64,000 nt of DNA from a virus. Lineage: Duplodnaviria > Caudoviricetes. The notes beneath the pieces were generated by a model. It was not told the origin of the DNA and ran no database searches. It saw only the letters and a list, made by a program, of their open reading frames with translations. The position numbers and the translations under genes are program-made. The stretch lies in the IMG/VR virus record IMGVR_UViG_3300044630_004720; one strand, 5' to 3'. Positions 23,071-48,743 of the stretch are shown here, in pieces. How positions within the stretch are numbered: position 1 is the stretch's first letter; every line of letters begins with the position of its first letter.

Positions 23071-24041
23071 TTAAATTCTTCTTTGTTTTTTAGATACCAA
23101 TCATAGGCCATTTTTAGACCTGATTCTAATGATGTTTTAGCTTCCCAACCCAATTGGTTTTTAATTTTATTTGAGTCAATTTTTCTTGTTGGAATCATTG
23201 ATGGTTTACCTGAAATAAATTCAGTAGGTGCGTCGTATTGTGCAACACGTTTCATAATATCTAACACTTCTAAAACTGAATACACTTTATTTGAACCAAT
23301 GTTGTATACCTCAAACATAACTTCTTCTTTTTCCATCACAACTTGTAACGCCTCAACAAAGTCTTCTATGTATAGTAAATCTCTTAGTTCAGTGCCATCA
23401 CCCCAAACAGGTATCGGATTCATTTTATCTGCAACTTTACGAATTGTTGCAGGTGTTACGTGACACTTATTGAAATCGTACTTATCGTGAGGGCCAAACA
23501 AATTCGCTGGTCTAATAACTGTACACTTCATTGTTCGTGGTAAGTATTTTGCATAGAGTTCACATTGAACTTCAGCGTAACGTTTCATCCAACCAACTGG
23601 AAAATAAACGGGATAAGGTTCATCAAATAAGAAATCCGTTTCAACAACCGGTTCATCACCTTTTGGTGGATACACAGTGTTTGATGATATAAATATGTAA
23701 TGTTTCACACCATTTCTCCAAGCAGTATCGATAAGGAAGTTATTCATTGCTACGTTAGGTGTAACGTGAGCTAATGGGTCAACAACAGTATCCACGGCAT
23801 TTGAAGTTGACGCTGCGGCGTGAAAAACAACATCCACATCTTTTGTTGCCAACATACAACCTTCGTATGTTTGTAAATCACAATGAGTATATTCAACGTT
23901 ATCGTATGTTTGTCTAACACCTCTATTGTGTAGATTTACTCTTAAATTTGTGTAACCTTCTTTAATAAGTCTTGCGGTTAAATTCTGACCCACTAAACCA
24001 GAACCACCCGTAATTAAAATTTTTGCGTTTTTATTTATCAT
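23067..24041 (-). CDS. Extended SDR, GDP-L-fucose synthase-like NDP-sugar epimerase/reductase (atypical active site)
   Basis: ILITGGSGLVG, RPANLFGPHD, VWGDG...RDLLYIED. VGWMK stands where YxxxK is expected. Confidence 0.75.
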   Translation of the reverse strand: MINKNAKILITGGSGLVGQNLTARLIKEGYTNLRVNLHNRGVRQTYDNVEYTHCDLQTYEGCMLATKDVDVVFHAAASTSNAVDTVVDPLAHVTPNVAMNNFLIDTAWRNGVKHYIFISSNTVYPPKGDEPVVETDFLFDEPYPVYFPVGWMKRYAEVQCELYAKYLPRTMKCTVIRPANLFGPHDKYDFNKCHVTPATIRKVADKMNPIPVWGDGTELRDLLYIEDFVEALQVVMEKEEVMFEVYNIGSNKVYSVLEVLDIMKRVAQYDAPTEFISGKPSMIPTRKIDSNKIKNQLGWEAKTSLESGLKMAYDWYLKNKEEFK

Positions 24042-25801
24042 ATAAATTTAGTTTTTCCATCGAAATTATTTTCCAATTCTTTACCATATGTCGTATCAAC
24101 ATCAGGTTCCCATACCATCTCAACTTTTTTATTTCCCACGTATCTTGGAATTATTTTAAAGGGTCCAACACTAATGAAATTTATGTATGTAAACCTTTTA
24201 AAATCATTTTTAACAGCCTCAACTGCGTGATTCACATTATTTTTAGAAAAATCAAGAATCGCAAAATTCACGTCAACAGGAACAACTTCGTCATAGTTAC
24301 CTTTATCTTGCAATATTAACTTTCCGCCACCATCAATATATTCTTTTTCAGGTGTTAAGTAAATCAATACCACACAATATCTTGTAGGATTTTGCCCATC
24401 GATGTGTGACTCAATAAAATCACCATTTTCATATATTGTGATACCATCATCATTGTGTGTGTTCCATTCTTTCAAATCAGGGTAAAGTTTATATAGGAAT
24501 CTTTGAATTTTTTCCCTAAAGTATTCTAAAAATTCCAACCACTCCCCACTTTTATAATTCAATTCCCACCAATGCTGTATAGTTTCCCAACCATTATCCG
24601 ATATGAATTGTCTTCTCTCCTCAATTTCTTCCTGAGTCTCTAAACTCCTTTTAAAGTTTAAAATTTCTTCATCTGTAACGGTATTAGGAACTCTATATTC
24701 ATATCTGTATGAGTAATATTTTTTATCTTCAGATAATTTAAAAATTTTATCACAAATTTCTTTGTGTTTTTCCCATTCGTCTTTTCTTATGAACTCACTA
24801 ACTTTTCCAACATAGTATCCCTTTTCAAAAAATTCATTCAAATCAACATTCAATGGGTTCTCACCATAATGTCTTGTATAAAATTCATAGGTTAACCTCA
24901 ATCCCTCCTTAAAACTATGTTTTGGTAATAATGCATAACCAGTTTGTCTATGTACAGACATTTTTCTATGCATATCACCATTTGGTTTCGTCTTATCCCA
25001 TTCGATTGATAATTTCTTACCACTCACCTCAATTATATTTTTAATCATTGATTCTATAGTAATAGACTCACCAGAACCAACGTTAACAACATCGGCGATT
25101 TGTCTTCTATAAGATTCTAACACCGCGGTTGCAACATCTTTAGCATACACAAAATCTCTTTGAGGTGTTCCATCACCCCAAGCAATTATAGTGTCACCAT
25201 CTTTCGCCTCACATACCTTTTTTATGGTACTCGCAATTACAGTACCATTACCACTAAAATCATCGTACTCACCAAAAATATTAGCCGGTCTAATTATAGT
25301 GAATTTTCTATAATTGTATTGTTTTTTATATGCACCTAACAAAAGTTCACCCATTCTTTTCGACCAAGAAGGAAACCAATCGTTTTCAGATGGTAATGTT
25401 TTCCAAACATCATCTTCGTAAAATGTTTCCGCAGGAGCATATACACCAACAGAACTTAGAAACACTAACCAAACATTATTTTTTGCGCACTGATGAATAA
25501 TTTCTGTATTAATTTTAAATGAAGGATATAAGAAATCAACAGGTTGTTGTTTTGCTTTAAGTGGTGAACCCTTTACACCAAAACAATTAAATACCGCATC
25601 TGGTCTCTCCTCCTCAAATATTTCTTTAATTAATGATTCAACCATTAAGTCTACATTTAAAAACTTAAAGTATTCAGATTCAGGTAAATCATCTGATTTT
25701 TTTATATCTACGCCGATAACATAGTCGCCTCTTTCCAAAGTTTCTTTAACAAGATGTACTCCGACTAAACCTGAACATCCGGTAATTAATATTTTTTTCA
25801 T
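24038..25801 (-). CDS. Fusion: NDP-sugar epimerase/reductase (extended SDR) + C-terminal 2OG-Fe(II) oxygenase
   Basis: N-part: ILITGCSGLVG, RPANIFG, WGDGTPQRDFVY. C-part: IESHIDG...GGGKL...HAVEAV...R. Confidence 0.75.
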   Translation of the reverse strand: MKKILITGCSGLVGVHLVKETLERGDYVIGVDIKKSDDLPESEYFKFLNVDLMVESLIKEIFEEERPDAVFNCFGVKGSPLKAKQQPVDFLYPSFKINTEIIHQCAKNNVWLVFLSSVGVYAPAETFYEDDVWKTLPSENDWFPSWSKRMGELLLGAYKKQYNYRKFTIIRPANIFGEYDDFSGNGTVIASTIKKVCEAKDGDTIIAWGDGTPQRDFVYAKDVATAVLESYRRQIADVVNVGSGESITIESMIKNIIEVSGKKLSIEWDKTKPNGDMHRKMSVHRQTGYALLPKHSFKEGLRLTYEFYTRHYGENPLNVDLNEFFEKGYYVGKVSEFIRKDEWEKHKEICDKIFKLSEDKKYYSYRYEYRVPNTVTDEEILNFKRSLETQEEIEERRQFISDNGWETIQHWWELNYKSGEWLEFLEYFREKIQRFLYKLYPDLKEWNTHNDDGITIYENGDFIESHIDGQNPTRYCVVLIYLTPEKEYIDGGGKLILQDKGNYDEVVPVDVNFAILDFSKNNVNHAVEAVKNDFKRFTYINFISVGPFKIIPRYVGNKKVEMVWEPDVDTTYGKELENNFDGKTKFI

Positions 25802-34943: not shown

Positions 34944-35381
34944 ATGATATACTGGTTCACAGGACAACCCGGCGCAGGTAAAACTACCCTATCAAAACAT
35001 CTGATTTCGTATTTAGAAAATACCGAAAAAGTGATTCACATTGATGGGGATGACCTAAGATTAATTTTTGAAAACAAAGACTTTTCAGAAACAGGCAGAA
35101 GAAAAAACATAGAAAGAGCACAAGACATTGCTCGTTTTATGAATGAAAAGGGATACACAGTTGTGGTGTCATTAGTTTCTCCATATAAAGATATGAGAGA
35201 TAACTTTAAAACTCACAATTCGGTGATTGAATTTTATGTACACACAACTGAAACAAGAGGAAGAGAATCGTTTCACGTGTCAAATTACGAACCCCCAACA
35301 GAAAATTTTATTGATATTAATACCACTAACAAAGATGAAAGAGAATCTTTCATCGAATTAATTAAATTTATAGATTTATGA
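34944..35381 (+). CDS. cysC: Adenylyl-sulfate (APS) kinase
   Basis: WFTGQPGAGKTTL P-loop, IDGDDLR, DFSETGRRKNI, SLVSPY..R, YEPP. Confidence 0.9.
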   Translation: MIYWFTGQPGAGKTTLSKHLISYLENTEKVIHIDGDDLRLIFENKDFSETGRRKNIERAQDIARFMNEKGYTVVVSLVSPYKDMRDNFKTHNSVIEFYVHTTETRGRESFHVSNYEPPTENFIDINTTNKDERESFIELIKFIDL

Positions 35382-35761
35382 AAAAGTATGCATTGTACAT
35401 CGGAAGATGGCAAAATTGGCACGCAGGACACGAATGGTTAATTAGCCAACAATTAGATAAAGGGAAAAATGTATGGGTGGCTATTAGGGATGTTGAAGTT
35501 GATGAGAACAACCCTAAAACCGCACAAGAAGTATTCCAAGAACTAATCAAAGTACCATTTTTTAATGAGAATTTTGATAAAATACTTCTCTCAATTATAC
35601 CTGATATCGAATCCGTAAACTATGGTAGAGGTGTAGGTTATGAGGTGATTTATCATAATCCCCCATCGGATATTGAAAGTATCAGCGGAACCAAAATAAG
35701 ACAAGGTTATATGGACAGCAACGGAGACGTTATTGTCTATTCAGTAGATGATGTGAAATGA
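35378..35761 (+). CDS. HIGH-family nucleotidylyltransferase (candidate minimal sulfate adenylyltransferase)
   Basis: YIGRWQNWHAGH (HxGH) and ISGTKIR. Overlap-coupled to cysC. Confidence 0.65.
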   Translation: MKKYALYIGRWQNWHAGHEWLISQQLDKGKNVWVAIRDVEVDENNPKTAQEVFQELIKVPFFNENFDKILLSIIPDIESVNYGRGVGYEVIYHNPPSDIESISGTKIRQGYMDSNGDVIVYSVDDVK

Positions 35762-35979
35762 TAGTAGAACGTAAAAGACACATAGCCAAAACAATATCAT
35801 ATAGAGTAGTATCAACCTTAATCGGGTTTGGTATAATGTGGTGGTTGAGTGGGGACCTTAAAGTAGGGGCGGCGTTCGGTGTCGCGGAACTTGTCTATAA
35901 ACCAATCCAATATTACATACACGAAAGAGTTTGGTATAGGTGGATAAAATACGGTTTAAAAGATAAAAATAAGTTATAA
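35758..35979 (+). CDS. DUF2061-like small membrane protein
   Basis: RHIAKTISYRVVST...YYIHERVW. Confidence 0.75.
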   Translation: MIVERKRHIAKTISYRVVSTLIGFGIMWWLSGDLKVGAAFGVAELVYKPIQYYIHERVWYRWIKYGLKDKNKL

Positions 35980-36540
35980 ATGGATAAATTATATACGGTT
36001 GAAAATTTTCTTAGTGAAAATGAATGTTTGAGTATCTTAACAAAATACAAATCCGAATTAAAACTAAAACCCGCTGAAGTGGCGGTAAAGGAGGGCAATA
36101 CATTTAGTGATAAAAGGAAATCATCCATTGCATTTATTGACGGTATAGAAACGATAGATGAGAGAATTAAGAACACATTAAAGAATCTTATACAAATCAA
36201 AGGATTTGAAGTAACAGGTTTAGGTCCATACCAATTTACGGAATATAAAGTCGGTGAGTATTATGATTGGCACACCGACTCATCATCAATTGGAGATGAA
36301 TATAAGGACAGATTTTGCTCTATTGTCATTCAGATTAATGATGAATATGATGGTGGATATCTTCAATTAAAAGATGAGAATGGAAATAATATTCAATTGG
36401 ATAAGGGTATTGGTACAATGTATATATTTTATTCAAATATAGTACATAGAGTGGTTCCGGTCACTAATGGAGTTAGGTATTCTTTAGTTAATTGGGTATC
36501 TCTTAGAAAATTAGAAAATTTTAAAAAAACACTATTGTAA
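35980..36540 (+). CDS. 2OG-Fe(II) oxygenase (prolyl 4-hydroxylase-like)
   Basis: YDWHTD, YDGGYL, HRVVPVTNGVRYSLV. Confidence 0.88.
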   Translation: MDKLYTVENFLSENECLSILTKYKSELKLKPAEVAVKEGNTFSDKRKSSIAFIDGIETIDERIKNTLKNLIQIKGFEVTGLGPYQFTEYKVGEYYDWHTDSSSIGDEYKDRFCSIVIQINDEYDGGYLQLKDENGNNIQLDKGIGTMYIFYSNIVHRVVPVTNGVRYSLVNWVSLRKLENFKKTLL

Positions 36541-36555
36541 CATACACCCATCCCA

Positions 36556-36584
36556 TTGATAAAAAAAATACCCATATTTATAAT
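36556..36584 (+). promoter_or_regulatory. sigma70-type promoter (overlaps a TATTTATA element)
   Basis: TTGATA-N17-TATAAT, 24 nt upstream of the ATG at 36609. Confidence 0.7.
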
Positions 36585-36608
36585 AGAATAAAAAAATAAT
36601 AAGACAAT

Positions 36609-38060
36609 ATGAAATCACTATTAATCGCGACGGACTTAATAAAAACAGTTTCAGGAGATGTAAAAGTACTGGAAACAAACACAAACGCTCTTGTAAATTA
36701 TAAATTTGACGATAATATACATTATTTGGATAATCTTACTGCGTTTATCCAATCCAACCAATTCCAAACGGTACATTGTATATATCCAATTTACTCTTCT
36801 AATTTTACCAAAAAGCTAAAAGAAATATGTGAATCATTAAACATATCTGTCGTTCAGCACCCTACGGATACCGGTTCAGTTACCGTTCCATACATTGAAG
36901 ATTCAGAAGATATTTTGATTATTAGAATTTCATATGATACGACTGCGATAATTGATGAGGAGTACTGTAAAGACAAATTCAAATTACAGAGCATTATTAA
37001 TAACAAAACCTATGGTTCTAAAACATTTATACCAAACGAAATAGATAATTTTGCGTCAATATCAGATTTTCAATATTCAGACGATGTACCAAATTTCATA
37101 GTAAAAAAGAGATTTCCTAATTATGATAGAGAAATTTATCCCAAATTATATAAAGTACAAAACTTGGCAGAATTAAACGAATTAAAGACTACAATAGAAT
37201 CCGATTGTTATTTACAAGAATTCCACCATTCAGAATTAGTACAGGGTAAAAGATGTGTTATAAGAAGTTTAGACCTTCTTTATGGTAGTAATTTAGATGT
37301 GTTAAATATTTGTAGTTTTTATAAGACAAACCAATTGGCTGAGAATCAATGGGAAAACACATATAATGAGGAGGGGTTGTTGGATAAAAAAGATAGACCA
37401 AAATATATAACAAACACAAACGAAAATCATAATTCTTTTTGGCCTTACGTTTATGATGTTGACCAAGAATTGGTTATGGGTGATGGAGGTAGAAAACCAT
37501 TTAATGAATTACAAATTGGTAATAGTGTTAAAACTGTACATATTGATGGGTTAGATTTGGATGAAAGAGCATATAAAATGTTTGAGTGGGTCGGAAACTA
37601 TAATGATTTTGTATCTAATATTTATCTTAAAGAAACCCAGGTAACATCTATATTTACATCTCCCCCAACATCACAATTATTTTTAAGAGTTACTTTAGAT
37701 GACGGAGTAACAGAATGGGATGATTTGAATGAAACACCCCTATTAGTTAAGGTTGGTGAAACAATAATTTTTAAGGAGTTTGGAGACCTTGAAATTGGAG
37801 ATAGTATTGTAACTTTTAACTTTGAAACTAATTTACCTGAAATTAAAAACGTACAATCTATTGATGTTGTCTTTAAAGATGAACAAGTGTTAGGTTCTAT
37901 TGATGTTGAACCAGAAGATGTCTATATGCCGTTGGTTTCACAATATATTACGATTATTCAACACAACCAATGTAATAAAGGTTGTAAAGCAACAGGATGT
38001 GCGGATGCATATTATTGTGGAGATTGTACACCTGTTTTTTGTGGACCACCCCCAAAATAA
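36609..38060 (+). CDS. Circularly permuted ATP-grasp-like domain + Hint (intein-like) domain + 30-aa Cys-rich C-terminal peptide
   Basis: N-terminal ATDLIKTVSGDVKVLETNTN, IVKKR and YLQEF resemble CP-ATP-grasp motifs. Residues 281-453 carry Hint blocks (LVMGDGGRKPFNELQIGNSV; DLEIGD; IDVE...IIQHN). Confidence 0.6.
   Translation: MKSLLIATDLIKTVSGDVKVLETNTNALVNYKFDDNIHYLDNLTAFIQSNQFQTVHCIYPIYSSNFTKKLKEICESLNISVVQHPTDTGSVTVPYIEDSEDILIIRISYDTTAIIDEEYCKDKFKLQSIINNKTYGSKTFIPNEIDNFASISDFQYSDDVPNFIVKKRFPNYDREIYPKLYKVQNLAELNELKTTIESDCYLQEFHHSELVQGKRCVIRSLDLLYGSNLDVLNICSFYKTNQLAENQWENTYNEEGLLDKKDRPKYITNTNENHNSFWPYVYDVDQELVMGDGGRKPFNELQIGNSVKTVHIDGLDLDERAYKMFEWVGNYNDFVSNIYLKETQVTSIFTSPPTSQLFLRVTLDDGVTEWDDLNETPLLVKVGETIIFKEFGDLEIGDSIVTFNFETNLPEIKNVQSIDVVFKDEQVLGSIDVEPEDVYMPLVSQYITIIQHNQCNKGCKATGCADAYYCGDCTPVFCGPPPK
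37449..37967 (+). other. Hint/intein-like domain (Val281-Asn453), C-terminal His-Asn retained, N-terminal Cys and block-B TxxH absent
   Basis: VYDVDQELVMGDG aligns to the CxxxxTxVxMADG pattern. The terminal codons cac-aac (HN) lie at 37962-37967. Confidence 0.65.
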
Positions 38061-38096
38061 ATTTAAAAATAAAAATAAAAATAAAAATTATATATT

Positions 38097-38207
38097 ATGT
38101 TAATACAAACTATATTTGCACCTACGGAACAAGGAACTAAAACAGGAGTTGAAACCACAATACAAGATATGGTTTTAACAATTTTATCCGATGTCCAATC
38201 TTCTTAA
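38097..38207 (+). CDS. Small Thr-rich peptide, 36 aa (not in ORF track)
   Basis: MLIQTIFAPTEQGTKTGVETTIQDMVLTILSDVQSS fills the gap between two genes and has an A-rich leader. Confidence 0.55.
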   Translation: MLIQTIFAPTEQGTKTGVETTIQDMVLTILSDVQSS

Positions 38208-38228
38208 TTAATTGTTTAATTCAAACCG

Positions 38229-38522
38229 ATGCCAATAGATATACGAGAAATTACGGTAGCTTGGTGGGATTCTTATTTTGCGGATGATAATCAAAAAAAA
38301 TTAGCTAAAGAAAGGTTAAGTATTTGTGAAAGTTGTCCATCATTAGAACAAAAATTTAAAAAAATAAGAAAAATAACTATTAGTGTTTGCGGAGAATGTG
38401 GATGCCCAATTACCAAAAAAGTATTTTCAAATAAGTTTAATGCGTGTCCTTTGGGTAAATGGAAAGAAGTAGATGAATCACAACCAGAATTTTTTAAAAT
38501 TAAAAAGGATAAATTAATATGA
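38229..38522 (+). CDS. Small Cys-rich, probably Zn-binding protein (DUF6171-like)
   Basis: RLSICESCP...CGECGCP...CPLGKW. Confidence 0.6.
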   Translation: MPIDIREITVAWWDSYFADDNQKKLAKERLSICESCPSLEQKFKKIRKITISVCGECGCPITKKVFSNKFNACPLGKWKEVDESQPEFFKIKKDKLI

Positions 38523-39118
38523 GTTACCCCTTTTATCAGGAAGTTATTTTTACAGACGAAGAGTGTAAAAAAATAATAGAATATTCTAAAGTTTATCCTG
38601 CAAATGCTGAAAAGAGAAAATTAGAACCTAATATAAATCTTGAAACAAATAGGGCGGAACAAAATATACCATCTATTGATGGAAAGAAAAAAGGAAAAGC
38701 CTTCTTTGTTTATGATATTGATAGGGAGGAAAATACAGAATGGGTTTTTCAAAAACTATTAAATTGGTTTCAAAAAGTTTCAAATATTAAATTAAAAGAA
38801 ACACATACATTAAATGGTATGACTCTACTTAACTATAAAGTTGGTGATTTTTTTATGAGACATACTGACATATATCCAAATTTTGAGTGGAGGAGATGGA
38901 CAATAAACATTCAGTTGGGTGACCAATATAAAGGAGGTGATTATGTTTTATATTTGGATGAGAAGGAAATTGTTTTGAACAAAGAAGTAGGTAACGCAAT
39001 TGCATATTGGGCAGGAACCGAACACGAAGTTAAAGAAATCAAAGAAGGTGAAAGATGGTCTATTGTGTGTTCGGTGGGAAAACACCTGATTATTGAGAAC
39101 GAAAAAAAGTTATTGTAA
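38519..39118 (+). CDS. 2OG-Fe(II) oxygenase
   Basis: RHTD, YKGGDY, EHEVKEIKEGERWSIV. Confidence 0.85.
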   Translation: MSYPFYQEVIFTDEECKKIIEYSKVYPANAEKRKLEPNINLETNRAEQNIPSIDGKKKGKAFFVYDIDREENTEWVFQKLLNWFQKVSNIKLKETHTLNGMTLLNYKVGDFFMRHTDIYPNFEWRRWTINIQLGDQYKGGDYVLYLDEKEIVLNKEVGNAIAYWAGTEHEVKEIKEGERWSIVCSVGKHLIIENEKKLL

Positions 39119-39119
39119 A

Positions 39120-39818
39120 ATGTCATTATTAATAAATAATGAATTAATTTGGATATCTGTTCCAAGATGTGCCAGTTATTCAATCGAAACATCTTTTTAC
39201 AACTCAAATTTAAAAATAGAACATTATAATAATTCGTTTAATCATTTAGCACCGGGTGATGTTGGGTTTGTACACGAACACTTTAATTTATATAATTTAA
39301 ATAATAGATGGTTAAATAAAAAAACAATTAGAATCAAAAGAGACTGGATGGAAAGATGGTTATCTGCTTTAGAACATCTTTGGTTCAGTATTGAGAAAGC
39401 AAACAATAGAAAGCCTATTATACCTTATGAGGAAATTGATAACGATTTTATTTATCAAACATTCACAAAAAAATTTGGAAATGAACTATATTCTGAAGGA
39501 GGTCAGTATAAAATATTTTACCATTTAATAAAAGATTTTGTACTTACAGAAAGTTTCAAATTAGGAACGAGGACCGGATTACTATGGTCTCAAAACTATT
39601 GGTTAAGTGGTGAAAAAAAGTGTGACTTCGAATTTGATATAAATGAATTAGATAAGTTCGCGGATTTTATCGAAAAAAAGTATGGTGAAAAATTAATTAT
39701 TGAACATCAAAACAAATCAAAAAAGAAAACGAACAAAATCATTATAAATGATGATTTAAAAAATCACATATGGGATGTCTTTGAATCTCCATTTCATAAA
39801 GTTTCAAAAATTTTTTAA
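39120..39818 (+). CDS. Sulfotransferase family 2-like protein
   Basis: WISVPRCASYSI (5'-PSB loop) and RDWMERWLSA (3'-PB), SQNYWL. Start re-set to MSLLIN. Confidence 0.65.
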   Translation: MSLLINNELIWISVPRCASYSIETSFYNSNLKIEHYNNSFNHLAPGDVGFVHEHFNLYNLNNRWLNKKTIRIKRDWMERWLSALEHLWFSIEKANNRKPIIPYEEIDNDFIYQTFTKKFGNELYSEGGQYKIFYHLIKDFVLTESFKLGTRTGLLWSQNYWLSGEKKCDFEFDINELDKFADFIEKKYGEKLIIEHQNKSKKKTNKIIINDDLKNHIWDVFESPFHKVSKIF

Positions 39819-39835
39819 CTTTCAATAAATAAAAT

Positions 39836-40207
39836 ATGATTATTAAAAATGAAATTCAATTAGAGGTAAAATATATAGACGAAACAATGGGTTTTGGTGT
39901 TTTTGCTCTTCAAGATATTGATGAAGGTATTATTGTTGAAACTTGTTATAGTATTAAAACATATAACCAAGTGTTTAATCCTTGTTTTGATTACCTTTTT
40001 AGTTTAAGTAACACGGAATCCTTATTACCTTTGGGATATGGTTCAATATATAATCATAGTTACACACCAAATATACATTGGAGAATAGTAAATATGGAAA
40101 AATCAGTCATTGAATTTTACGCACTAAAAAAAATAAGGACGGGTGATGAGTTGTGCCACAACTATGGGCAACACTATTGGAAAGTGAGGGAAAAAAAATT
40201 ATTATAA
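39836..40207 (+). CDS. SET-domain protein (Lys methyltransferase fold)
   Basis: GFGVFA..DI..G, YNHSYTPN, ALKKIRTGDELCHNYG. Confidence 0.88.
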   Translation: MIIKNEIQLEVKYIDETMGFGVFALQDIDEGIIVETCYSIKTYNQVFNPCFDYLFSLSNTESLLPLGYGSIYNHSYTPNIHWRIVNMEKSVIEFYALKKIRTGDELCHNYGQHYWKVREKKLL

Positions 40208-40230
40208 ACGAAAAACAAAATTAATTTGAT

Positions 40231-40896
40231 ATGTCAAATCTTTGGACATTTGGAGATTCGTTTACGGCGGGCGATGGATGTGTGGAAAATATACCTATTA
40301 GAGATGGTGATTTTAAATATTATAACGAATATAAACAATCAGATAGTGATATATGGCCAAACATATTAGGTGAAACTATTAGATATAACGTAAAAAATAT
40401 GGGAAAAAGTGGGGCAAGTAATGATTATATTTTAGATTCTATTATTGACAATTTCAATATGATAGAACCAGATGATGTAGTTATAATTGAAAAAACATTT
40501 TACCAAAGATTCGATGTTCCTAAATTAAATAGTAATGAATTTCACACAATATATGGTGAAGCGCTTTATATAATGGATACTGATTTAAAAAAAAATAAAT
40601 ATAATAAAGATAAATTAGAAATTGAAACAATATTAAATTATGGTGTTTTATTTTGTCAAAACTCTTTGTTTCAGGAAAGGCAGAACAAACGATTTCGATT
40701 TATTCAAACATTATTAAAATCAAACGTAAAAAAAATTTTAATTTGGGATATTGATAGTGATTTAAGAAAATCAATCGAAACAATTTCACAACATACAAAA
40801 GGTAAAATAAAGGATTATCATTTTAGCTTTAATGGTCATAAAGAATTTAGTGAACTGCTGTATAAAAAATTATTTACTAAACCCATATTAATTTAA
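40231..40896 (+). CDS. SGNH/GDSL-like protein (copy 2)
   Basis: WTFGDSFTAG, GKSGASN, DYHF. Confidence 0.6.
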   Translation: MSNLWTFGDSFTAGDGCVENIPIRDGDFKYYNEYKQSDSDIWPNILGETIRYNVKNMGKSGASNDYILDSIIDNFNMIEPDDVVIIEKTFYQRFDVPKLNSNEFHTIYGEALYIMDTDLKKNKYNKDKLEIETILNYGVLFCQNSLFQERQNKRFRFIQTLLKSNVKKILIWDIDSDLRKSIETISQHTKGKIKDYHFSFNGHKEFSELLYKKLFTKPILI

Positions 40897-40915
40897 GTGA
40901 AAAATAAGGATTGAT

Positions 40916-41413
40916 ATGATAGTACAAAGACAAATTTTTACTGAAATCGAATGTACCCAAATAATAAATTTAATAAAGGAAAATCAAAATATTTGGGAGA
41001 ATAGTGATAGGAGATATGAATCTAAGTCAATATTCTATAATGAAAAAACTAAATGGATTTTCGATAAGATGGTTAATTTTTTCCAAGAATCCACGCACCA
41101 TCAAATTTTAGAACTAAAAAAAGAAATTCATTTTCACACATACAATAAAGGCGATTGGTTCGGTAAACACAATGACACTAGAGATAGGAGAGTATACTCT
41201 GTGGGTGCATTGTTAAATTCTGATTTTGATGGAGGAGATTTTAAAATATATACCCCACAGGAAACGACATTAACTAAAAATGCAGGCAATGCGTATGTAT
41301 TTGATGTGACTTATGAACACGAAATAACAAGAATTACTAACGGAATCAAATATTCAATTATATGGTTCGTACAAGATAATCACATTAAAATTAAACAATT
41401 ATCAATTATATAA
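40916..41413 (+). CDS. 2OG-Fe(II) oxygenase
   Basis: GKHND, FDGGDF, EHEITRITNGIKYSI. Confidence 0.82.
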   Translation: MIVQRQIFTEIECTQIINLIKENQNIWENSDRRYESKSIFYNEKTKWIFDKMVNFFQESTHHQILELKKEIHFHTYNKGDWFGKHNDTRDRRVYSVGALLNSDFDGGDFKIYTPQETTLTKNAGNAYVFDVTYEHEITRITNGIKYSIIWFVQDNHIKIKQLSII

Positions 41414-41414
41414 T

Positions 41415-42665
41415 ATGTTGACCATATATGTTCACCATTTTTACACTAATTTATTATTTCAAAAATTATTTCACAATGTTAAAGACAAAGAAATTTTTGA
41501 AATAGACAATACTAATGGTGCAATAAGAGAGATTACTTTCAATTATAATAACCACAGTTTTAAAGTTATTTTTAACCCCGAAATCATTGATGATGAGGGA
41601 TTACATATTATTGATTATTTCGGTGCACTTAGACAAAGAGGACAGGGACATACGTTATTTGAAAATACTGAAATGAATGGTTCAGAATCATTTGCAGTAC
41701 TGGAGAGAATCGTTGAATTGATTGAGGATAAGAAAAATTGGATTATAACTCTTTTCAGAACAGAAAAACTTTTCATACTAAATGATAATACAAAAGTAAA
41801 ACTTGGGGGGACGGAGCAAATAGGTGAAACAGAACAAAAAATATTAAAACTATCAAACCATCAAATTTTAACTGATAGTGTTTTTATTGATGAACTTGTA
41901 AAAAATAAGTACTTAAACGTACACAATGCGTTTACCAATATAATTTTTCAATGGAATGAATTGATTAGTATTAGGTGGTTTTATGATTATAAAAACATAG
42001 CAGAAACAAATAATCCTAAATATAAATTAGGTTACAGTGTCAGGAGACATAAACCATACAGAATTAAACTAGCAAAAAGGTTATCAAAAATTGATGACAT
42101 ATTTGTTTCACAAACAAATTCAATCAACGAACCGAACTCAATGACGTACTATGAAAAAATAGATAGTATATATTTCAACGACATTGATTCAGAAATTGAC
42201 TTCCAAAACATTAGAGGTATTGATAATTTAACAATCGGACTTGATTTCTTTTTAAGAATTCTTTCAATGTATAAGTTACAAATATGTGATGAATCTTGGT
42301 CTGATAATGCTTCTAACTACACTAGTCAATATTTGAGTGAGAAAACTATCGGTTTAATATTAGCGAATGTCCCATTCATTTGTACTCATTCATATCCTTA
42401 TGATTGTTTAACTAAATTAATAGACGCCCCTAAACACCCGTTTTACGAGGAGTCTAAAAAATACCAAGGTAATGTCGACCTCTTTGTTGAATTTGTGGAA
42501 ACATTTTTAAGTGACTTCGATAGAAACTATAAATTATGTAAAGATTGGGTTGAGGAATGTCATAACATTTTTATGGATAGATTACATAACGAGAACTCAA
42601 TGCTCGATATGATTATTAATGATGAGATAAAAAGTAGAGAACAGATTAAATTTAATTTAATTTAA
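41415..42665 (+). CDS. Divergent GT10-like SEK family protein (copy 4)
   Basis: RRHKPYR, CDESW, YLSEKTIGLILANVPF. Confidence 0.4.
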   Translation: MLTIYVHHFYTNLLFQKLFHNVKDKEIFEIDNTNGAIREITFNYNNHSFKVIFNPEIIDDEGLHIIDYFGALRQRGQGHTLFENTEMNGSESFAVLERIVELIEDKKNWIITLFRTEKLFILNDNTKVKLGGTEQIGETEQKILKLSNHQILTDSVFIDELVKNKYLNVHNAFTNIIFQWNELISIRWFYDYKNIAETNNPKYKLGYSVRRHKPYRIKLAKRLSKIDDIFVSQTNSINEPNSMTYYEKIDSIYFNDIDSEIDFQNIRGIDNLTIGLDFFLRILSMYKLQICDESWSDNASNYTSQYLSEKTIGLILANVPFICTHSYPYDCLTKLIDAPKHPFYEESKKYQGNVDLFVEFVETFLSDFDRNYKLCKDWVEECHNIFMDRLHNENSMLDMIINDEIKSREQIKFNLI

Positions 42666-42671
42666 AAAATT

Positions 42672-43256
42672 GTGGTCATTAAGATATACGATAACAAAAT
42701 TTTATCGCCAGTTAAATGTGGTACAAGATACTTAGATAAAATTTGGTTGAATAAACTTGTTGAGTACACACATAATGATTACTTGAGATTTCCTAAAGTA
42801 AAATATATTATTGTTAGGTCACCATTAGAACATTTAATAACCGCACTTCATACTGAAACCGTTGGATACATAAATGAATTTGGTAAAGTAATGGATTTCT
42901 ACCACCAACTCAATGATTTTATTAGTCCAATTGGGGCAACACATTGGTCAACACAATTTTACAAATATCTTTATTATTACAGAAATAGATACGGAAGTGA
43001 TGTTGAGGTAGTTGAACTATCAAACTTAACTACCTTATTACAAAATTTAGGTTATGATTTGGAGTATAACTCGGAAGAGTATAATTTTAAAAAGTATGAA
43101 CATTGGTGGGAAAAGAACGAATTATTTGATATTTTAAAAGAAGCCTATCCCCAAGAAATCAAATGGCTTCTTGAAAAGGTAGAAGAACAAAATGTTTATT
43201 ATAATAAACTTTTAAACAATGAAACAGATAATAATCTGATTGGTAATTTAATATGA
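42672..43256 (+). CDS. Degenerate sulfotransferase-like protein
   Basis: PVKCGTRYL and IIVRSPLEHLITAL resemble PAPS-binding motifs. GTG start. Confidence 0.45.
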   Translation: MVIKIYDNKILSPVKCGTRYLDKIWLNKLVEYTHNDYLRFPKVKYIIVRSPLEHLITALHTETVGYINEFGKVMDFYHQLNDFISPIGATHWSTQFYKYLYYYRNRYGSDVEVVELSNLTTLLQNLGYDLEYNSEEYNFKKYEHWWEKNELFDILKEAYPQEIKWLLEKVEEQNVYYNKLLNNETDNNLIGNLI

Positions 43257-44026
43257 AAGCATTAAAGTTTTGGTCCAAGTCAGGATTCGATGTTGCAAGT
43301 TATAAATGGAAGTTAGAGGAAAGAAGAAATAAATCCTTTAATGGTTCTGGTTCTGATGAAAGCGGAACCAACAAGTACACCTACAACGAAATGGGGTTTA
43401 GGGGAGACTCAATATACAAAGACGGTTTTAGAATTATGTCGGTTGGTTGCTCCCATACCGAAGGTGTCGGGGTGAATGATTGGGAAACCTGGCCACACTT
43501 GTTTTCCAAATTAATACCAAATGGAGTCGATTTAAACCTTGGATTTGGTGGAAGGAGTAATGATTATGTTGCTCGAGCTATTGTGTCATTAATAGACACT
43601 ATGAGACCGAATTTGGTTAATATTATGTATACCTACCCTTCTCGTAAGGAATACTACAAATATAATGGTGATTTGGAACCATTCCATATGACACCTTGGG
43701 GATACTTTAAGGAGGATTCTGAGGGACAGGAAGAGTACAAATCGATAGCAAGAGTTACCCACGATGAGAATGATTTAATTGGATGGTACAAAAATCATTT
43801 ACTCATCACCAACTTTTTAGAGAATAGAAATATTCCATATATATGGAACGGAAGCTTCCTTATGGATGGTGAGTATACTGATAAAAATAGGTTCGATGGT
43901 GACTATGGAGACTTCAGAGAGTTTTCTGTGGATGGTAAACACGCAACCGCCAAACACAATGAGGAATACTCCAAAAAACTATATGGATTTATAAAATCCA
44001 ATTTCCCCAATTATTTACCCAAATAA
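43253..44026 (+). CDS. SGNH/GDSL-like protein (copy 3)
   Basis: SVGCSHTEG, NLGFGGRSN, DGKHA. Confidence 0.6.
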   Translation: MKALKFWSKSGFDVASYKWKLEERRNKSFNGSGSDESGTNKYTYNEMGFRGDSIYKDGFRIMSVGCSHTEGVGVNDWETWPHLFSKLIPNGVDLNLGFGGRSNDYVARAIVSLIDTMRPNLVNIMYTYPSRKEYYKYNGDLEPFHMTPWGYFKEDSEGQEEYKSIARVTHDENDLIGWYKNHLLITNFLENRNIPYIWNGSFLMDGEYTDKNRFDGDYGDFREFSVDGKHATAKHNEEYSKKLYGFIKSNFPNYLPK

Positions 44027-44081: not shown

Positions 44082-47000
44082 ATGAAAATATTTGACGCAC
44101 ACATATCCGGGTCTTTATCCGTATCGAGCTCAGCTCACATTGAAGGGGATTTAACGGTTTTAGGTACGTTATTTGCAACTGTTAGTGGTACAACCACCAA
44201 CGCATTAACGGCCTCTGAGGCTCCGAGGTATACACTTACTTCGAGTTTTAACTCATTTACCTCTTCATATACAACAGGTTCTTTCACCGGTTCATTTATC
44301 GGTGATGGAGGTAATTTATATAATATTCCGGCTAGTGGAGTTACCGGACTTAATCTTAACAAAATAACCAGCGGGAGTGTTAGTGCGTCAATCTCTCCTG
44401 ACAGAGGTTTAGAAGTTAATACCGACTTAAATGTTGTGGGTATAATCACAGCAAAAGAAATCCACACATCAATTGTTACATCATCGGTACTTTTTGAATC
44501 GGGTTCAACAATATTCGGTAACACTTCAGATGACACTCACCAAATAACAGGTTCGGTTGGTATAACGGGTTCATTAACTTTAAATAATGACCCTGTTGTT
44601 GTTAACACCACATTTAATTCTTTCACATCAAGTGCGAATGGTAGACTAAATTCAATCGAAACCTCAACGAGTTCATTAAATAGTTTCACGTCGAGTGCTA
44701 ATGGAAGATTATCTTCAATTGAGGGAGTAACAGGTTCAATTACATTATTAAATACCTACACAGGTAGTAACAATACGGTGATTGGTACGTTACAAACGTC
44801 CACCAGTAGTTTAAATTCATTTACTTCATCTATTGATACCACAATTAAAAATAAACTTAATAGTGATAATGTAATATCTGGTTCGGCACAAGTTATAATT
44901 ACAGGAACCACAGGATATTCCAATTTTAGTTCTTCGATTGGATTTACAACAATTACAATTGAAAACAGAGTAGGTTCTTTAGAGACTGAAAGTGGAAGTA
45001 TAAGAACAGACTTCAATAGTTACACCTCATCAAACAACGGCACAAATACAACTCAAAACAATAGATTAACAGCAATAGAAACCTCTACAGGTTCACTAAA
45101 TACATTTACATCTTCTGCCAGTGGTCGTTTAAATTCACTTGAATCAACTAGTGGAGCATTAAACACGTATACATCAAGTGCGAATGGTAGACTAAATTCA
45201 ATCGAAACCTCAACAGGAAGTCTTAATTCCTTTAGTAGTTCTACATTAAGTAGTTTAACCGCGATTCATACTTCAACAGGTTCATTGAATACATTCAGTT
45301 CATCTACATTAACAAGATTAACAAATTTAGAAAGTGCTAGCTCTTCAATTAGAAGTGATTTCAATTCCTACACATCAAGCGCAAATGGTAGACTAAGTTC
45401 AATTGAAACATCAACAGGTTCATTGAACACGTTTAGTTCGTCAACATTAACGAGATTAACCGCAATTGAAACGTCAACAAGTAGTTTAAATTCATACACG
45501 AGTTCGAACACTACAAATATAAATGCCATTCATACTGCAACTGCAAGTTTGAATTCATTCTCTTCAAGTGCGGATGGTAGACTAACATCTATTGAGGGGG
45601 TAACAGGTTCAATTGCGGCGTTGAATACTTACACAGGTTCAAATAACACCGCAATCAATGCGTTAAATTCTTATACGAGTAGTAACACTACTAATATTAA
45701 TGCGATTCATACCGCAACAAGTAGTTTAAATTCATACACAAGTAGTAACACGACAAACATAAATGCTATCCATACTGCAACAAGTAGTTTAAATAGTTTT
45801 ACAAGTAGTGCTTCGGGTAGATTAACCGCGTTAGAAACTGCATCAAGTAGTTTAAATTCTTACACAAGTAGTAACACAACCGCAATTACTGCGTTGAATT
45901 CATTTACCACATCATTTAATACTGCATTTGGTTTAAGTGGTGCAAACGTTACCGTTAAAGGTAATTTAACCGTACAAGGTTCCACAACTCAAGTTGATTC
46001 GACAACTGTTAATATTGGTGATAACATTATTCAATTAAATGGTACAGGGGCAACCAATGCAGGTATTGTTGTTAGAGATGCGACATCACCAACACTTACT
46101 TCAGGTTCATTCCTTTGGGACTCAACAAATGATAAATGGGTTGCAGGTCCATTAGGTTCTGAAGACGAAGTTGTATTAAAGACAGCATCACAAGCATTAA
46201 CAAACAAAACAATTAGTGGAGGTTCTAACACATTATCAAATATTGGTAACTCTTCACTTACAAATAGTTCAATCACAATTGCGGGTACGAGTACATCATT
46301 AGGGGGTTCAATAACCGCAGCAACGATATTAACATCCACAGGTGTTTGGTCAGGTTCCGCACAATTACCATCAGGAGTTGTTAGTGGTTCTGCACAGGTA
46401 ATTGCAAATTTACCATCAGGAACTGTATCAGGTTCTTCCCAAGTACTTGCAGGGACAACAATACATTCGGGAGCGTTTTTTAATGGAATATCTGTTGTGT
46501 CTGGTTCTGGTCAAATATCTTTTAACGGAATCACTGATAAACCTACGTTGGTTTCAGGTTCTTCACAAGTATTAAACGGAAGTGGAGTTTGGTCAGGTTC
46601 CGCACAACTTCCAAGTGGAGTTGTTTCGGGTTCATCACAAATAACATTTGGTTCAATAAGTAGTATACCATCAGGACTAGTATCAGGTTCATCACAAATA
46701 ACATTTGGTTCAATAAGTAGTATACCATCAGGTTTAGTTTCAGGTTCATCTCAAATTGCAATCGCGTCAACAAGTGGGTTTGGAACATATTTGAACCAAG
46801 CTGTTTTAACAACATCAACACCAACATTTGACCAGGTTATTACAAGTAACAACGGTAATGGTACAAACTTTAGATTAGGGGACGACACTTGGATAGGTGA
46901 TATTAATGTTGCAAATACTTTTAGAGTTACGGGTCTCCAAGATGCCACACAAGGTTACATTGTATTTGGTAACAGTAACGCAACGGCATTAGGTAGAAGT

Positions 47001-48743
47001 GGTACAGGAGCATTAACATATGGTGGAAACACAATATGGCACGCAGGGAACGATGGTTCGGGTACAGGATTAGATGCGGATTTATTAGATGGTAGTCACG
47101 CATCTGCGTTCTCACCTGTGGCAGGTAGTTCATCAATAACAACTGTTGGAACAATTAGTAGTGGTACTTGGAATGGTTCTTCCATTTCAACAACATACAC
47201 AGACGCAAAAGTTACAAGTGTAAGTGCAGGTACTGGAATTAGTGTAAATGCTACGACAGGTGCTGTTACAGTGACCAACACCGGCACATTAACCGTAGCA
47301 GGAACTGCAAACCAAGTATTAATAAATGGTGGAACAGCGGCCGCTAATGGTAACATTACATTATCGTTACCACAAAGTTTAGGTACAGGTAGTTCACCAA
47401 CATTTGCCGCAATTACAGTTGGTAAATCGGGAACCGATTCAACAATTACGTTCCCCGCACAAACCAATGACCCAGGCTATATTAAACATTATGAAAGTAA
47501 TAACACCGCAATAATGTACTTTAACGTATCTGACGATACGAATGATGAGTTTCATTTTGGTTATAGTGCAGACGCTTCAACATTTAGATTAAGAGCGGAC
47601 GGTGTTGTTCTAGAGGGTACTTGGCAAGGTTCTGCAATTGGTGATTCATATATTAGTTCTGCGTCAAATTGGAATACAGCATATAATAAGAGACCATCAT
47701 CTTTAGGTTTTACAAGTTCAACTGTAACATTAACACTTGGGGATGGTTCTACCGTCACAGCATCTGTACCGACATTTAATCAGAATACAACAGGTAATGC
47801 TGGATATGCAACTACGGCAGGTGCATTAACTTCAATGAATATATCTCAGTTCACTAACAACTCAGGATATATTACCAGTTCTTCAACAATTAGTGGAGCT
47901 GCTGGTAGACTTTCAACTAGAGATTTAAGAACTATTGCACCTAACTCCGAGAATGCTGCGGAATTAAGATTTGGATTTACATCTTTCGCTAATAATAATA
48001 CATCTCCTTGGGCTGATTACTTACATCTTCGTTCGTATAGTGATGGTAGTGGTGGTGCTGACAATTTAGTGATGTTTTCAAAGAGTGGTATTGGTATGAG
48101 AATATACCAACAAACATTTGGTTCAGGGACTGCATATTCATCATACGCGGACGTACTGCATTCTTCTAATTACAACTCTTATTCACCAACCTTAACAGGT
48201 ACAGGTGCGTCTGGAACTTGGGGTATCAACATCACAGGTAATGCTGCAACACTTGGTAATATATCGGCATCAGGTTTTTGGCAAGCTAGTGGTTCTTGGG
48301 GTGCGGATTTAACATCAAATGGGTATACAAGACAGATTGGTCTCGCATACGCTGGTGGAGAATTTGTTATATTAACAAGTAGTGGACAAATTTCGACTTT
48401 AATTGACGGTTCATATTTTGCTGGTGAACAAGGAGGTTTTTACTCAATGAATACATCAAACCAATTTTCATCTAGAGTTGGTTTTAACAGAGATAGTAGT
48501 GGTAACGCATCGTTTAACGCTAGTATTGTTCCAACAACAAATGGTACTTTGAACTTAGGTTCGTCATCGGCTAGATGGAACACAGTGTTCACATCTGACT
48601 TAAGTATGTCGAATGGCATTGGTGATTATACAATTGTTGAAGGTGAAGAAGATTTATTTATTTATAATAATAAAACCAATAAGGTGTTCAAGTTCTTATT
48701 ACAAGAAGTTGACTCATCAATAGTACCGGCTAAAAAGATTTAA
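44082..48743 (+). CDS. Giant Ser/Thr-rich fibre-like protein B (paralogue of fibre A)
   Basis: Shares GSFIGDG..LYNIPASGVTGL, SGSTxFG..DDTHQ, S/T repeats, GxVSGSxQ repeats and the C-terminal module (WNTVFTSDL..YTIVEGEEDLFIYNNKT). Confidence 0.75.
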   Translation: MKIFDAHISGSLSVSSSAHIEGDLTVLGTLFATVSGTTTNALTASEAPRYTLTSSFNSFTSSYTTGSFTGSFIGDGGNLYNIPASGVTGLNLNKITSGSVSASISPDRGLEVNTDLNVVGIITAKEIHTSIVTSSVLFESGSTIFGNTSDDTHQITGSVGITGSLTLNNDPVVVNTTFNSFTSSANGRLNSIETSTSSLNSFTSSANGRLSSIEGVTGSITLLNTYTGSNNTVIGTLQTSTSSLNSFTSSIDTTIKNKLNSDNVISGSAQVIITGTTGYSNFSSSIGFTTITIENRVGSLETESGSIRTDFNSYTSSNNGTNTTQNNRLTAIETSTGSLNTFTSSASGRLNSLESTSGALNTYTSSANGRLNSIETSTGSLNSFSSSTLSSLTAIHTSTGSLNTFSSSTLTRLTNLESASSSIRSDFNSYTSSANGRLSSIETSTGSLNTFSSSTLTRLTAIETSTSSLNSYTSSNTTNINAIHTATASLNSFSSSADGRLTSIEGVTGSIAALNTYTGSNNTAINALNSYTSSNTTNINAIHTATSSLNSYTSSNTTNINAIHTATSSLNSFTSSASGRLTALETASSSLNSYTSSNTTAITALNSFTTSFNTAFGLSGANVTVKGNLTVQGSTTQVDSTTVNIGDNIIQLNGTGATNAGIVVRDATSPTLTSGSFLWDSTNDKWVAGPLGSEDEVVLKTASQALTNKTISGGSNTLSNIGNSSLTNSSITIAGTSTSLGGSITAATILTSTGVWSGSAQLPSGVVSGSAQVIANLPSGTVSGSSQVLAGTTIHSGAFFNGISVVSGSGQISFNGITDKPTLVSGSSQVLNGSGVWSGSAQLPSGVVSGSSQITFGSISSIPSGLVSGSSQITFGSISSIPSGLVSGSSQIAIASTSGFGTYLNQAVLTTSTPTFDQVITSNNGNGTNFRLGDDTWIGDINVANTFRVTGLQDATQGYIVFGNSNATALGRSGTGALTYGGNTIWHAGNDGSGTGLDADLLDGSHASAFSPVAGSSSITTVGTISSGTWNGSSISTTYTDAKVTSVSAGTGISVNATTGAVTVTNTGTLTVAGTANQVLINGGTAAANGNITLSLPQSLGTGSSPTFAAITVGKSGTDSTITFPAQTNDPGYIKHYESNNTAIMYFNVSDDTNDEFHFGYSADASTFRLRADGVVLEGTWQGSAIGDSYISSASNWNTAYNKRPSSLGFTSSTVTLTLGDGSTVTASVPTFNQNTTGNAGYATTAGALTSMNISQFTNNSGYITSSSTISGAAGRLSTRDLRTIAPNSENAAELRFGFTSFANNNTSPWADYLHLRSYSDGSGGADNLVMFSKSGIGMRIYQQTFGSGTAYSSYADVLHSSNYNSYSPTLTGTGASGTWGINITGNAATLGNISASGFWQASGSWGADLTSNGYTRQIGLAYAGGEFVILTSSGQISTLIDGSYFAGEQGGFYSMNTSNQFSSRVGFNRDSSGNASFNASIVPTTNGTLNLGSSSARWNTVFTSDLSMSNGIGDYTIVEGEEDLFIYNNKTNKVFKFLLQEVDSSIVPAKKI
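44600..45910 (+). repeat. ~21-aa S/T-rich repeats in fibre B (SLNSYTSSNTTNINAIHTATS etc.)
   Basis: Recurrent units in the translation. Boundaries are approximate. Confidence 0.8.
46629..46732 (+). repeat. Exact 47-bp direct repeat, period 57 bp (19 aa)
   Basis: ggttcatcacaaataacatttggttcaataagtagtataccatcagg at 46629 and 46686. Confidence 0.9.

Follow-up and report, generated by a model that had tools for sequence, protein, structure and literature searches.

In the pretoxin-HINT proteins, a Hint (Hedgehog/intein) autopeptidase lies directly upstream of a variable C-terminal toxin module and is thought to free that module (Zhang et al. 2012, PMC3482391). The ATP-grasp enzymes GspS, YgiC, and YjfC are described, in the part of PMC12568646 that cites Pederick et al. 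2023, as ligating the C-terminal carboxylate of a peptide to an amine. Here, we analyze a phage gene in which domains of these two kinds are fused and followed by a short Cys-rich tail. The gene is encoded by IMG/VR record IMGVR_UViG_3300044630_004720 (Duplodnaviria; Caudoviricetes), of which a stretch of 64,000 nucleotides with a GC content of ~31% (hereafter the window) was studied. It lies in a block of genes at positions 35980-44026 that an earlier note, written from the DNA letters alone, had interpreted as a phage-borne post-translational modification pathway resembling those for RiPPs (peptides made by the ribosome and then modified post-translationally). We consider the chances to be about even that the fusion gene is the center of a conserved phage module for peptide maturation and that this block supplies its enzymes.

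The fusion protein shares with pretoxin-HINT and bacterial intein-like (BIL) proteins the Hint fold, an invariant His-Asn pair, and a fast-evolving C-terminal tail. However, the piece to be released here would be a peptide of ~30 aa with six Cys instead of a folded toxin domain, and neither a secretion or filament region nor a conserved N-terminal nucleophile is found. In addition, the Hint domain is fused to an ATP-grasp domain, the gene is phage-borne, and tailoring enzymes surround it in place of immunity genes. The ATP-grasp domain resembles GspS, YgiC, and YjfC (2ioa, 7uk8, and 7uk6) in its invariant catalytic Lys, Arg, and Mg-binding ExN residues, whereas sequence similarity to them is undetectable, the ExN motif is N-terminal, a separate chain of 36 aa completes the domain in our structural model, and a Hint domain is attached.

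RiPP clusters with many tailoring enzymes include those of the proteusins/polytheonamides and of microviridin-type graspetides. As in these clusters, an encoded peptide lies beside hydroxylases, methyltransferases, radical S-adenosylmethionine (SAM) proteins, and an ATP-grasp enzyme, with a variable core and conservation elsewhere. On the other hand, the leader here would be an enzyme of 450 aa that brings its own Hint protease, and the scans turned up no RiPP recognition element (RRE), the enzymes instead sharing a C-terminal tag. Unlike in graspetides, the ATP-grasp domain is nearest to GspS/YgiC, and the neighboring 36-aa protein is a predicted subunit and not a precursor. No description of an ATP-grasp domain combined with a Hint domain in phages, or of jumbo-phage RiPPs, was found in the literature.

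A conserved gene set around the ATP-grasp/Hint gene

Synteny was compared across 87 loci, the window included, of which five were retrieved by exact protein look-up and 80 from IMG/VR by alignment, drawn from 274 IMG/VR relatives of the fusion gene. Identities between fusion proteins ranged from 28 to 92%, and open reading frames (ORFs) were called and labelled with iterated profiles built from the window proteins. The most widespread families were the 2-oxoglutarate (2OG)-Fe(II) oxygenases (84 loci, two to seven copies per locus), a Cys-rich protein of 97 aa (Cys97; 80 loci), a 232-aa sulfotransferase-fold protein (76 loci), and SGNH-like proteins (66-68 loci), followed by a DUF2061 protein (59), a nucleotidyltransferase-like protein (46), adenosine 5'-phosphosulfate (APS) kinase (33), a 416-aa protein (p416; 20), and a SET methyltransferase (19). 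Gene order was clade-dependent: the Cys97 and sulfotransferase genes follow the small 36-aa gene in the clade of the window and precede the fusion gene in distant clades. Wherever Cys97 was present (80/87), its gene adjoined the pair formed by the fusion gene and the 36-aa gene. Relatives additionally encode methyltransferases, radical SAM and B12-radical SAM proteins, a flavoprotein resembling halogenases, and an Asp/Arg hydroxylase. In the converse search, which started from the sulfotransferase profile, the fusion gene was found in 64 of 71 new loci, and the remaining seven lay at contig ends. The genes behave like a single unit tied to the ATP-grasp/Hint gene and do not reshuffle independently. 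As in RiPP clusters, tailoring enzymes are thus encoded together with the candidate precursor, and the grouping made in the earlier note persisted down to 28% identity despite the rearranged gene order.

The fusion protein itself has 483 aa and more than 130 metagenome homologues. Searches with it against Pfam, NCBIfam, PHROGs, and PDB sequences returned no family, and neither tblastn of this protein nor megablast of the whole block matched any of 50,697 GenBank phage records. Among prokaryote genomes (185,579 species searched), only two contigs of metagenome-assembled genomes (MAGs) matched: a 3.7-kb contig in a Pelagibacterales MAG (L158) and a 248-kb contig binned as a Flavobacteriaceae MAG (L159; CBFHJJ010000001.1). 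The latter is probably a jumbo phage genome that was binned with a host.

A structure model built on a 23-sequence alignment (predicted local distance difference test, pLDDT, 82) was used to assign the domains. Residues 1-270 (36609-37418, + strand) form an ATP-grasp amide-ligase domain, which Foldseek matched to YgiC (7uk8/7uka), YjfC (7uk6), and GspS (2ioa) with E values of 4e-6 to 5e-5. Residues D9, K19, E22, N24, K166, R168, Q203, and R219 are invariant in the alignment, and the Mg-site ExN motif lies at the N-terminus of the domain. Residues ~278-453 (37440-37967, + strand, counted from residue 278) adopt a Hint fold that matched the Hog domain of Hedgehog (1at0; TM-score by target 0.80, E 9e-8) as well as BIL2 (6y75) and many inteins (E 1e-8 to 1e-6). 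This domain ends in His452-Asn453, both of which are invariant in 23 of 23 aligned sequences, and all 87 loci have the His-Asn pair. The alignment shows no conserved Cys, Ser, or Thr nucleophile where the Hint domain begins, the invariant residue there being D283, and because of this the domain appears to be at best a cleavage-only variant that would cut solely at its C-terminal end.

After the His-Asn pair come one variable residue and then the tail, the candidate released peptide, which in the window is encoded in frame at 37968-38057 (+ strand; residues 454-483, 30 aa, six Cys). Exactly six Cys were counted in 140 of 146 relatives, with tail lengths of 26-35 residues and a Cys spacing that varies by clade. 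When only non-Cys positions were compared, the tail had diverged more than the body at every distance, with identities of 78, 64, 51, and 40% in the tail against 94, 85, 74, and 64% in the body; the locus thus encodes a candidate precursor with a variable core. The tail was modelled at a pLDDT below 50, and ten tails scanned against Pfam gave no match. The window peptide ends in PPPK, which the earlier note had regarded as a plausible target of prolyl 4-hydroxylase (P4H)-like and SET enzymes. This ending is not a conserved target: relatives end differently, and only a Lys among the last three residues is kept (55 of 57 tails). A structural metal site is an unlikely role for the tail, given the clade-variable Cys spacing, the fast loops, and the second self-cleaving domain that flanks it in some relatives.

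This second domain occurs in relatives of 625-650 aa (L024:10001-11920, L025:10001-11926, L032:2076-4001, L034:10001-11947, L042:1488-3365, and L045:10001-11953), in which the Cys peptide is followed by another complete intein-like domain that matches PF07591. It starts with Cys, contains a TxGH block, and ends in VHN plus two to eight mostly basic residues. The placement of the Cys peptide between two self-processing domains suggests that it is an excised piece. The residue at the +1 position is F, N, or K, because of which ordinary splicing looks impossible, and a thioester may form at the C-terminus of the peptide. Tails also vary in other ways. Two relatives of 549 aa (L062:10001-11650 and L066) have an expanded tail of 68 aa with ~14 Cys and many Tyr, and one of 581 aa (L022:10001-11746) carries a non-Cys extension of ~70 aa after a normal six-Cys peptide.

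Conotoxins of cone snails are secreted, disulfide-bonded peptides whose modifications include hydroxy-Pro, bromo-Trp, sulfo-Tyr, and epimerised residues. The tails resemble them in being short and in keeping their number of Cys while the loops are hypervariable, and the conotoxin modification repertoire mirrors the enzyme types encoded here and in relatives. However, there is no homology between the two, and the phage peptide would be made in the bacterial cytoplasm.

Directly 3' of the fusion gene, a small gene encoding 36-52 aa was found in 87 of 87 loci. In the window this is the ORF at 38097-38207 (+ strand), which had been noticed earlier as an unannotated 36-aa peptide and which, judging from its conservation, is a real gene. 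Its leader, between the fusion-gene stop and its own start, contains an (AAAAAT)x4 microsatellite (38065-38088, + strand) read directly from the sequence. For a model of the three-chain complex of the 36-aa protein (36-mer), the fusion protein, and Cys97, an alignment of each was the input, and only the 36-mer was scored. Its interface score (ipSAE) was 0.86 (0.85, 0.86, and 0.86 in the individual runs), against 0.00 for the best of three controls. When the tool was calibrated, this mark was attained by 58 of the 80 solved complexes and by 2 of the 110 mismatched pairs, counts that apply here only roughly since our own alignments were used. At least 93% of the contacts agreed between runs, and the partner pLDDT was at least 86. 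In the model, residues 1-10 of the 36-mer pair as a strand with fusion-protein residues 236-244, and its helix (residues 17-33) lies against residues 8-23, 119-135, and 211-233, so that this strand plus helix places 33 of 36 residues in the interface. The prediction is therefore that the 36-mer, buried almost completely, serves as a structural subunit and completes the ATP-grasp domain. The alternative raised in the earlier note, that the 36-mer is itself a substrate, as a graspetide-like precursor would be, is not supported, given this complex model and the Thr and Glu positions of the 36-mer, which the alignment shows not to be conserved across clades. The locus thus differs from graspetide clusters, where a separate short precursor has its Thr/Ser/Lys and Asp/Glu residues cross-linked. 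Every gap in the block is shorter than 70 nt, and no further candidate precursor was found in it.

Enzyme families and their shared C-terminal tag

Most proteins of the block end alike. In the window, nine of the ten block proteins terminate in two L/I/F residues, compared to six of the 57 proteins outside the block (Fisher p 1e-6). The ending seen across loci is strictly C-terminal, with a K-rich stretch followed by S/T/K, then L/I, and then I/L (K-[S/T/K]-[L/I]-[L/I]-COOH). This tag was carried by the 232-aa sulfotransferase family in 69 of 69 members, by p416 in 14 of 15, by 86-90% of the 2OG oxygenases, and by SET (14/18), radical SAM (27/35), and Cys97 proteins (45/63), while the family of the 257-aa SGNH-like protein had it in 12 of 22 members. 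It was rare or absent in the fusion protein (1/68), APS kinase (3/27), the nucleotidyltransferase-like protein (0/36), and the DUF2061 protein (3/39), as well as in the carbamoyltransferase (0/17) and the 908-aa glycosyltransferase/methyltransferase (GT/MT) protein (0/11) of the glycan cluster. The tag thus marks would-be macromolecule-acting enzymes, whereas the makers of diffusible cofactors and the glycan-cluster enzymes lack it.

The window also has tagged proteins 10-20 kb upstream of the fusion gene, which form the exceptions to this pattern: a radical SAM protein (17720-19174, + strand; ...KTNII), a 428-aa protein (19174-20460, + strand; ...KNKLI), and a 587-aa fusion of a short-chain dehydrogenase/reductase (SDR) epimerase with a 2OG oxygenase, assigned by Pfam (24038-25801, - strand; ...KTKFI). 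The radical SAM protein clusters with radical SAM enzymes of 348-355 aa that are found inside the module of relatives. A tagged SGNH-like protein lies at 62212-62847. The tagged set of this genome therefore exceeds the coordinates of the block. Two further tagged families are widespread among the loci and missing from the window: a family of ~186 aa with no known function (69 loci, tag in 62/64; e.g., L001:14906-15403, 165 aa) and one of ~414 aa (46 loci, tag in 30/34), whose member L003:12993-14192 (399 aa) matches PF04820, Trp_halogenase.

C-terminal address signals include encapsulin cargo-loading peptides, peroxisomal targeting signal 1 (PTS1; SKL-COOH), and the MuA-type ClpX signal. Like these, the tag, which is basic and hydrophobic, is a very short motif at the end of unrelated proteins; unlike these, its sequence is K-[S/T/K]-[L/I]-[L/I], and it marks the enzymes around a single precursor-like gene. 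General Pfam and NCBIfam scans turned up no RRE-type family, and the shared tag is a candidate equivalent. For Cys97, the complex model lists a single residue in contact with the 36-mer, L96, which lies within the Cys97 tag. We take this only as a lead to possible docking of the tag on the composite surface of the 36-mer and the ATP-grasp domain.

The arrangement of the block agrees with its earlier description as co-oriented and tightly packed. Every named gene in 35980-44026 is on the + strand, with intergenic gaps of -4 to 68 nt, and the terminator scan found no intrinsic-terminator-like site on that strand between these positions. The best sigma-70-like match of a 16.5-kb scan (36556-36584, 11/12) falls within the 68-nt gap directly 5' of the fusion gene. 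Site numbers in the promoter and terminator scan were below, or not above, those in shuffles, and the sigma-70-like motif was not enriched in the window; the host promoter type may differ.

Most of the enzyme classes named in the earlier note could be confirmed. The three P4H-like oxygenases all score above the PF13640 cut-off (27 bits) and each contains the HxD...H triad. The first, P4H/PKHD-like and 186 aa long, opens the block (35980-36540, + strand; 55.5 bits; ...KKTLL), and its distant PDB relatives are PiuC (2e-5) and a procollagen-proline dioxygenase (5iax, 3.9e-5). The others have 199 aa (38519-39118, + strand; 38.4 bits; ...EKKLL) and 165 aa (40916-41413, + strand; 37.1 bits; ...QLSII). 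The SET protein is a minimal lysine methyltransferase of 123 aa (39836-40207, + strand; ...EKKLL) with a PF00856 score of 48 bits (cut-off 22.4), and its best solved relative is vSET of Chlorella virus PBCV-1 (1n3j, E 1.2e-15). The window resembles PBCV-1 in that a large virus combines a minimal viral SET protein of ~120 aa with a P4H-type 2OG oxygenase. It differs in that the genes lie in a tagged operon and the host is bacterial, and therefore histones are not the SET target. The Cys-rich, Zn-type protein is Cys97 (38229-38522, + strand; ...KDKLI; phrog_13558), which resembles a zinc ribbon and whose family alignment shows six invariant Cys, arranged as CxxC...CxxCxC...C. No solved relative was found with its profile, and Atlas yielded only unnamed viral clusters.

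Two sulfotransferase-like proteins had been proposed, and the proposal stands for one of them. The 232-aa protein (39120-39818, + strand, from the ATG at 39120; ...VSKIF) has no Pfam family in its window version. The best VIA-align match of its model (pLDDT 85) was heparan sulfate 2-O-sulfotransferase (3f5f; Z 8.5, 162 residues, root-mean-square deviation 3.9), and the top eight structural matches were all sulfotransferases. A Z near 8 is a middling level for this tool, hence the motifs matter: the family alignment keeps P15/S19/S25 and R74...S82 as invariant or near-invariant residues, which we take to be the 5'-phosphosulfate-binding (5'-PSB) and 3'-phosphate-binding (3'-PB) motifs for 3'-phosphoadenosine 5'-phosphosulfate (PAPS). 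Moreover, the family profile matched 3f5f at E 0.015, and two of 21 relatives matched PF03567 (best 1e-5). The second protein, of 194 aa (42672-43256, + strand; ...GNLI), shows no profile link to the 232-aa family. Among its 100 nearest Atlas matches, 52 belong to the PF03567-marked set, the best such cluster having PF03567 on 20% of its members, and this language-model result makes it possibly sulfotransferase-like, as a lead only.

For the two proteins described as SGNH-like, this assignment is weak. That of 221 aa (40231-40896, + strand; ...KPILI; family in 68 loci) has the FGDS block, and it is similar to that of 257 aa (43253-44026, + strand; untagged in the window), with a BLASTP E value of 4e-6 and motifs in common. 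Both score below their Pfam cut-offs, the former with 18.9 bits to PF00657 (cut-off 23.6) and the latter with 13.3 bits to PF13472 (cut-off 32.9). Three features were absent from the earlier note: the shared tag, the 416-aa protein, and a PAPS cassette upstream of the block. The 416-aa protein (41415-42665, + strand; ...KFNLI) matched no Pfam, NCBIfam, or PHROG family, and Atlas yielded only unnamed viral clusters. The cassette at 34944-35979 consists of the APS kinase (145 aa; 34944-35381, + strand; PF01583 E 2.6e-18), an HxGH nucleotidyltransferase-like protein (127 aa; 35378-35761, + strand), and a small DUF2061 membrane protein (35758-35979, + strand; PF09834 E 2.4e-16), all of them untagged. 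The HxGH protein has weak NCBIfam matches to nicotinamide mononucleotide (NMN) adenylyltransferases (E 1.2e-5, below cut-off) and is possibly a small or minimal sulfate adenylyltransferase. The cassette is a probable source of PAPS for the sulfotransferase or sulfotransferases.

A ~26-kb glycan cluster with glycosyltransferases, epimerases, and a carbamoyltransferase lies directly upstream of the block, and glycan biosynthesis genes are found downstream as well. The next gene after the block (44082-48743) encodes a Ser/Thr-rich, fibre-like protein of 1553 aa. Among the loci retrieved by exact look-up, L001, L004, and L006 likewise have a glycan cluster and APS kinase upstream, and the flanks of L003 and L005 carry small unknown genes only and are free of glycan genes over 10 kb.

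Proposed peptide maturation and alternative explanations

From the computed domain architecture, conservation pattern, two-way synteny, tag statistics, and predicted 36-mer interface, we derive a maturation scheme whose docking, choice of substrate, sequence of events, and chemistry are all inferred. The fusion protein and its 36-aa subunit would be both precursor and platform. Unrelated enzymes would dock on this platform through their C-terminal tag and would act on the still attached tail by hydroxylation, sulfation, methylation, or other tailoring, with PAPS for sulfation supplied by the untagged cassette upstream. The ATP-grasp domain would join a carboxylate to an amine, e.g., at the C-terminus of the tail or at its conserved Lys, and cyclization of Asn453 would cut the chain after His-Asn, freeing the modified peptide. 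This logic would be RiPP-like, with a self-cleaving enzyme of 450 aa as the "leader" and the recognition element residing on the enzymes.

Several observations weigh against this scheme. The block-B TxxH motif is missing from the Hint domain, so that even the C-terminal cleavage is putative. Docking through the tag rests on one model contact, made by a chain other than the scored one. Tails contain more Lys in loci with SET than in other loci (3.2 vs 1.1) and more Trp in loci with the halogenase-like protein (2.6 vs 1.0), but phylogeny confounds both comparisons and exceptions exist, so that these links are weak hints that the tail is the substrate. Likewise, it is by interpretation that we assign the released peptide to these enzymes as their substrate, in preference to host proteins, glycans, or virion proteins. 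In the window and in three of the five exact-look-up loci, the module abuts a large glycan cluster, within which the window also has the tagged SDR-2OG fusion. A fibre profile search placed a fibre-like gene in the fetched flanks of 13 of the 87 loci, the window included, often at the end of the block. The structures nearest to the 232-aa protein are carbohydrate sulfotransferases, with tyrosylprotein sulfotransferases reaching a Z of only 4.4-4.5, and SGNH enzymes are more usual in glycan chemistry.

The genomic surroundings and the sulfotransferase matches would fit tagged enzymes that decorate the virion, i.e., by which fibre or capsid proteins, or the glycans on them, become hydroxylated, sulfated, methylated, or (de)acylated, with the fusion gene as a neighbor of separate role or its peptide ending up on the virion. 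We nevertheless regard this as unlikely. The enzymes accompany the fusion gene in 76-84 of 87 loci, which by far exceeds their association with any fibre (13 of 87) or glycosyltransferase gene; L003 and L005 have the module without a glycan gene in the 10 kb around it; the glycosyltransferases, the carbamoyltransferase, and the 908-aa GT/MT protein are untagged; and SET enzymes such as vSET target protein lysines. The tag could instead have another reader than the fusion protein and be a label for address or turnover, used for loading into a capsid or compartment, for membrane targeting, or as a ClpX-type C-terminal degron. In that case, the enzymes would have their targets in the host or elsewhere in the phage, and co-regulation would account for the link to the fusion gene. 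Its resemblance to the short signals named above and the occurrence of tagged proteins 10-20 kb from the fusion gene in the window speak for such a label. However, in every locus the tagged families cluster around the fusion gene at distances of a few kb, the sulfotransferase family hardly ever occurs without that gene, and the invariable core of fusion protein, 36-mer, and Cys97 would be left unexplained, which makes this explanation, in our view, quite improbable. Finally, the tagged proteins might themselves be the targets, with the ATP-grasp domain activating their C-terminal carboxylate and ligating it to the amine freed by the Hint domain or to the conserved Lys of the tail, so that each enzyme gains a Cys-rich appendage. 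This would agree with the chemistry attributed to GspS, YgiC, and YjfC in the cited part of PMC12568646, with the strictly C-terminal position of the tag, with the tag residue modelled beside the 36-mer on the ATP-grasp domain, and with the one Lys that tails keep near their end. On the other hand, it offers no reason why modifying enzymes alone should be targets and leaves the tail's fast evolution without a role, and each fusion protein could be used only once. We know of no precedent for it, and we give it little credence, the least among these explanations.

Returning to peptide maturation on the fusion protein, we propose tentatively, as possible yet rather doubtful, that it represents a new class of phage-made, heavily modified Cys peptides with a reversed leader logic. 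The precursor would be an enzyme platform composed of the ATP-grasp domain, the 36-aa subunit, and the self-cutting Hint domain; a dozen tailoring enzymes, unrelated to one another, would find this platform by a four-residue C-terminal tag; the ATP-grasp domain would close or cap the peptide; and Asn cyclization would release a fast-evolving, conotoxin-like product for conflicts between phage and host or between phages.

The module is common in IMG/VR, as the number of fusion-gene relatives there indicates, and almost absent from cellular genomes. If the proposed maturation is correct, large aquatic phages would make modified peptides by a route for which the literature searched holds no description. 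This route would combine three unusual features, namely a Hint domain as built-in release protease, an ATP-grasp ligase with a tiny subunit as scaffold, and a short C-terminal tag that recruits many unrelated enzymes. It would also represent a new biosynthetic logic for peptide natural products, in which the tag may serve as a portable docking element for enzyme recruitment, and it would assign a first function to the many giant-phage genes for 2OG oxygenases, sulfotransferases, and SET proteins.

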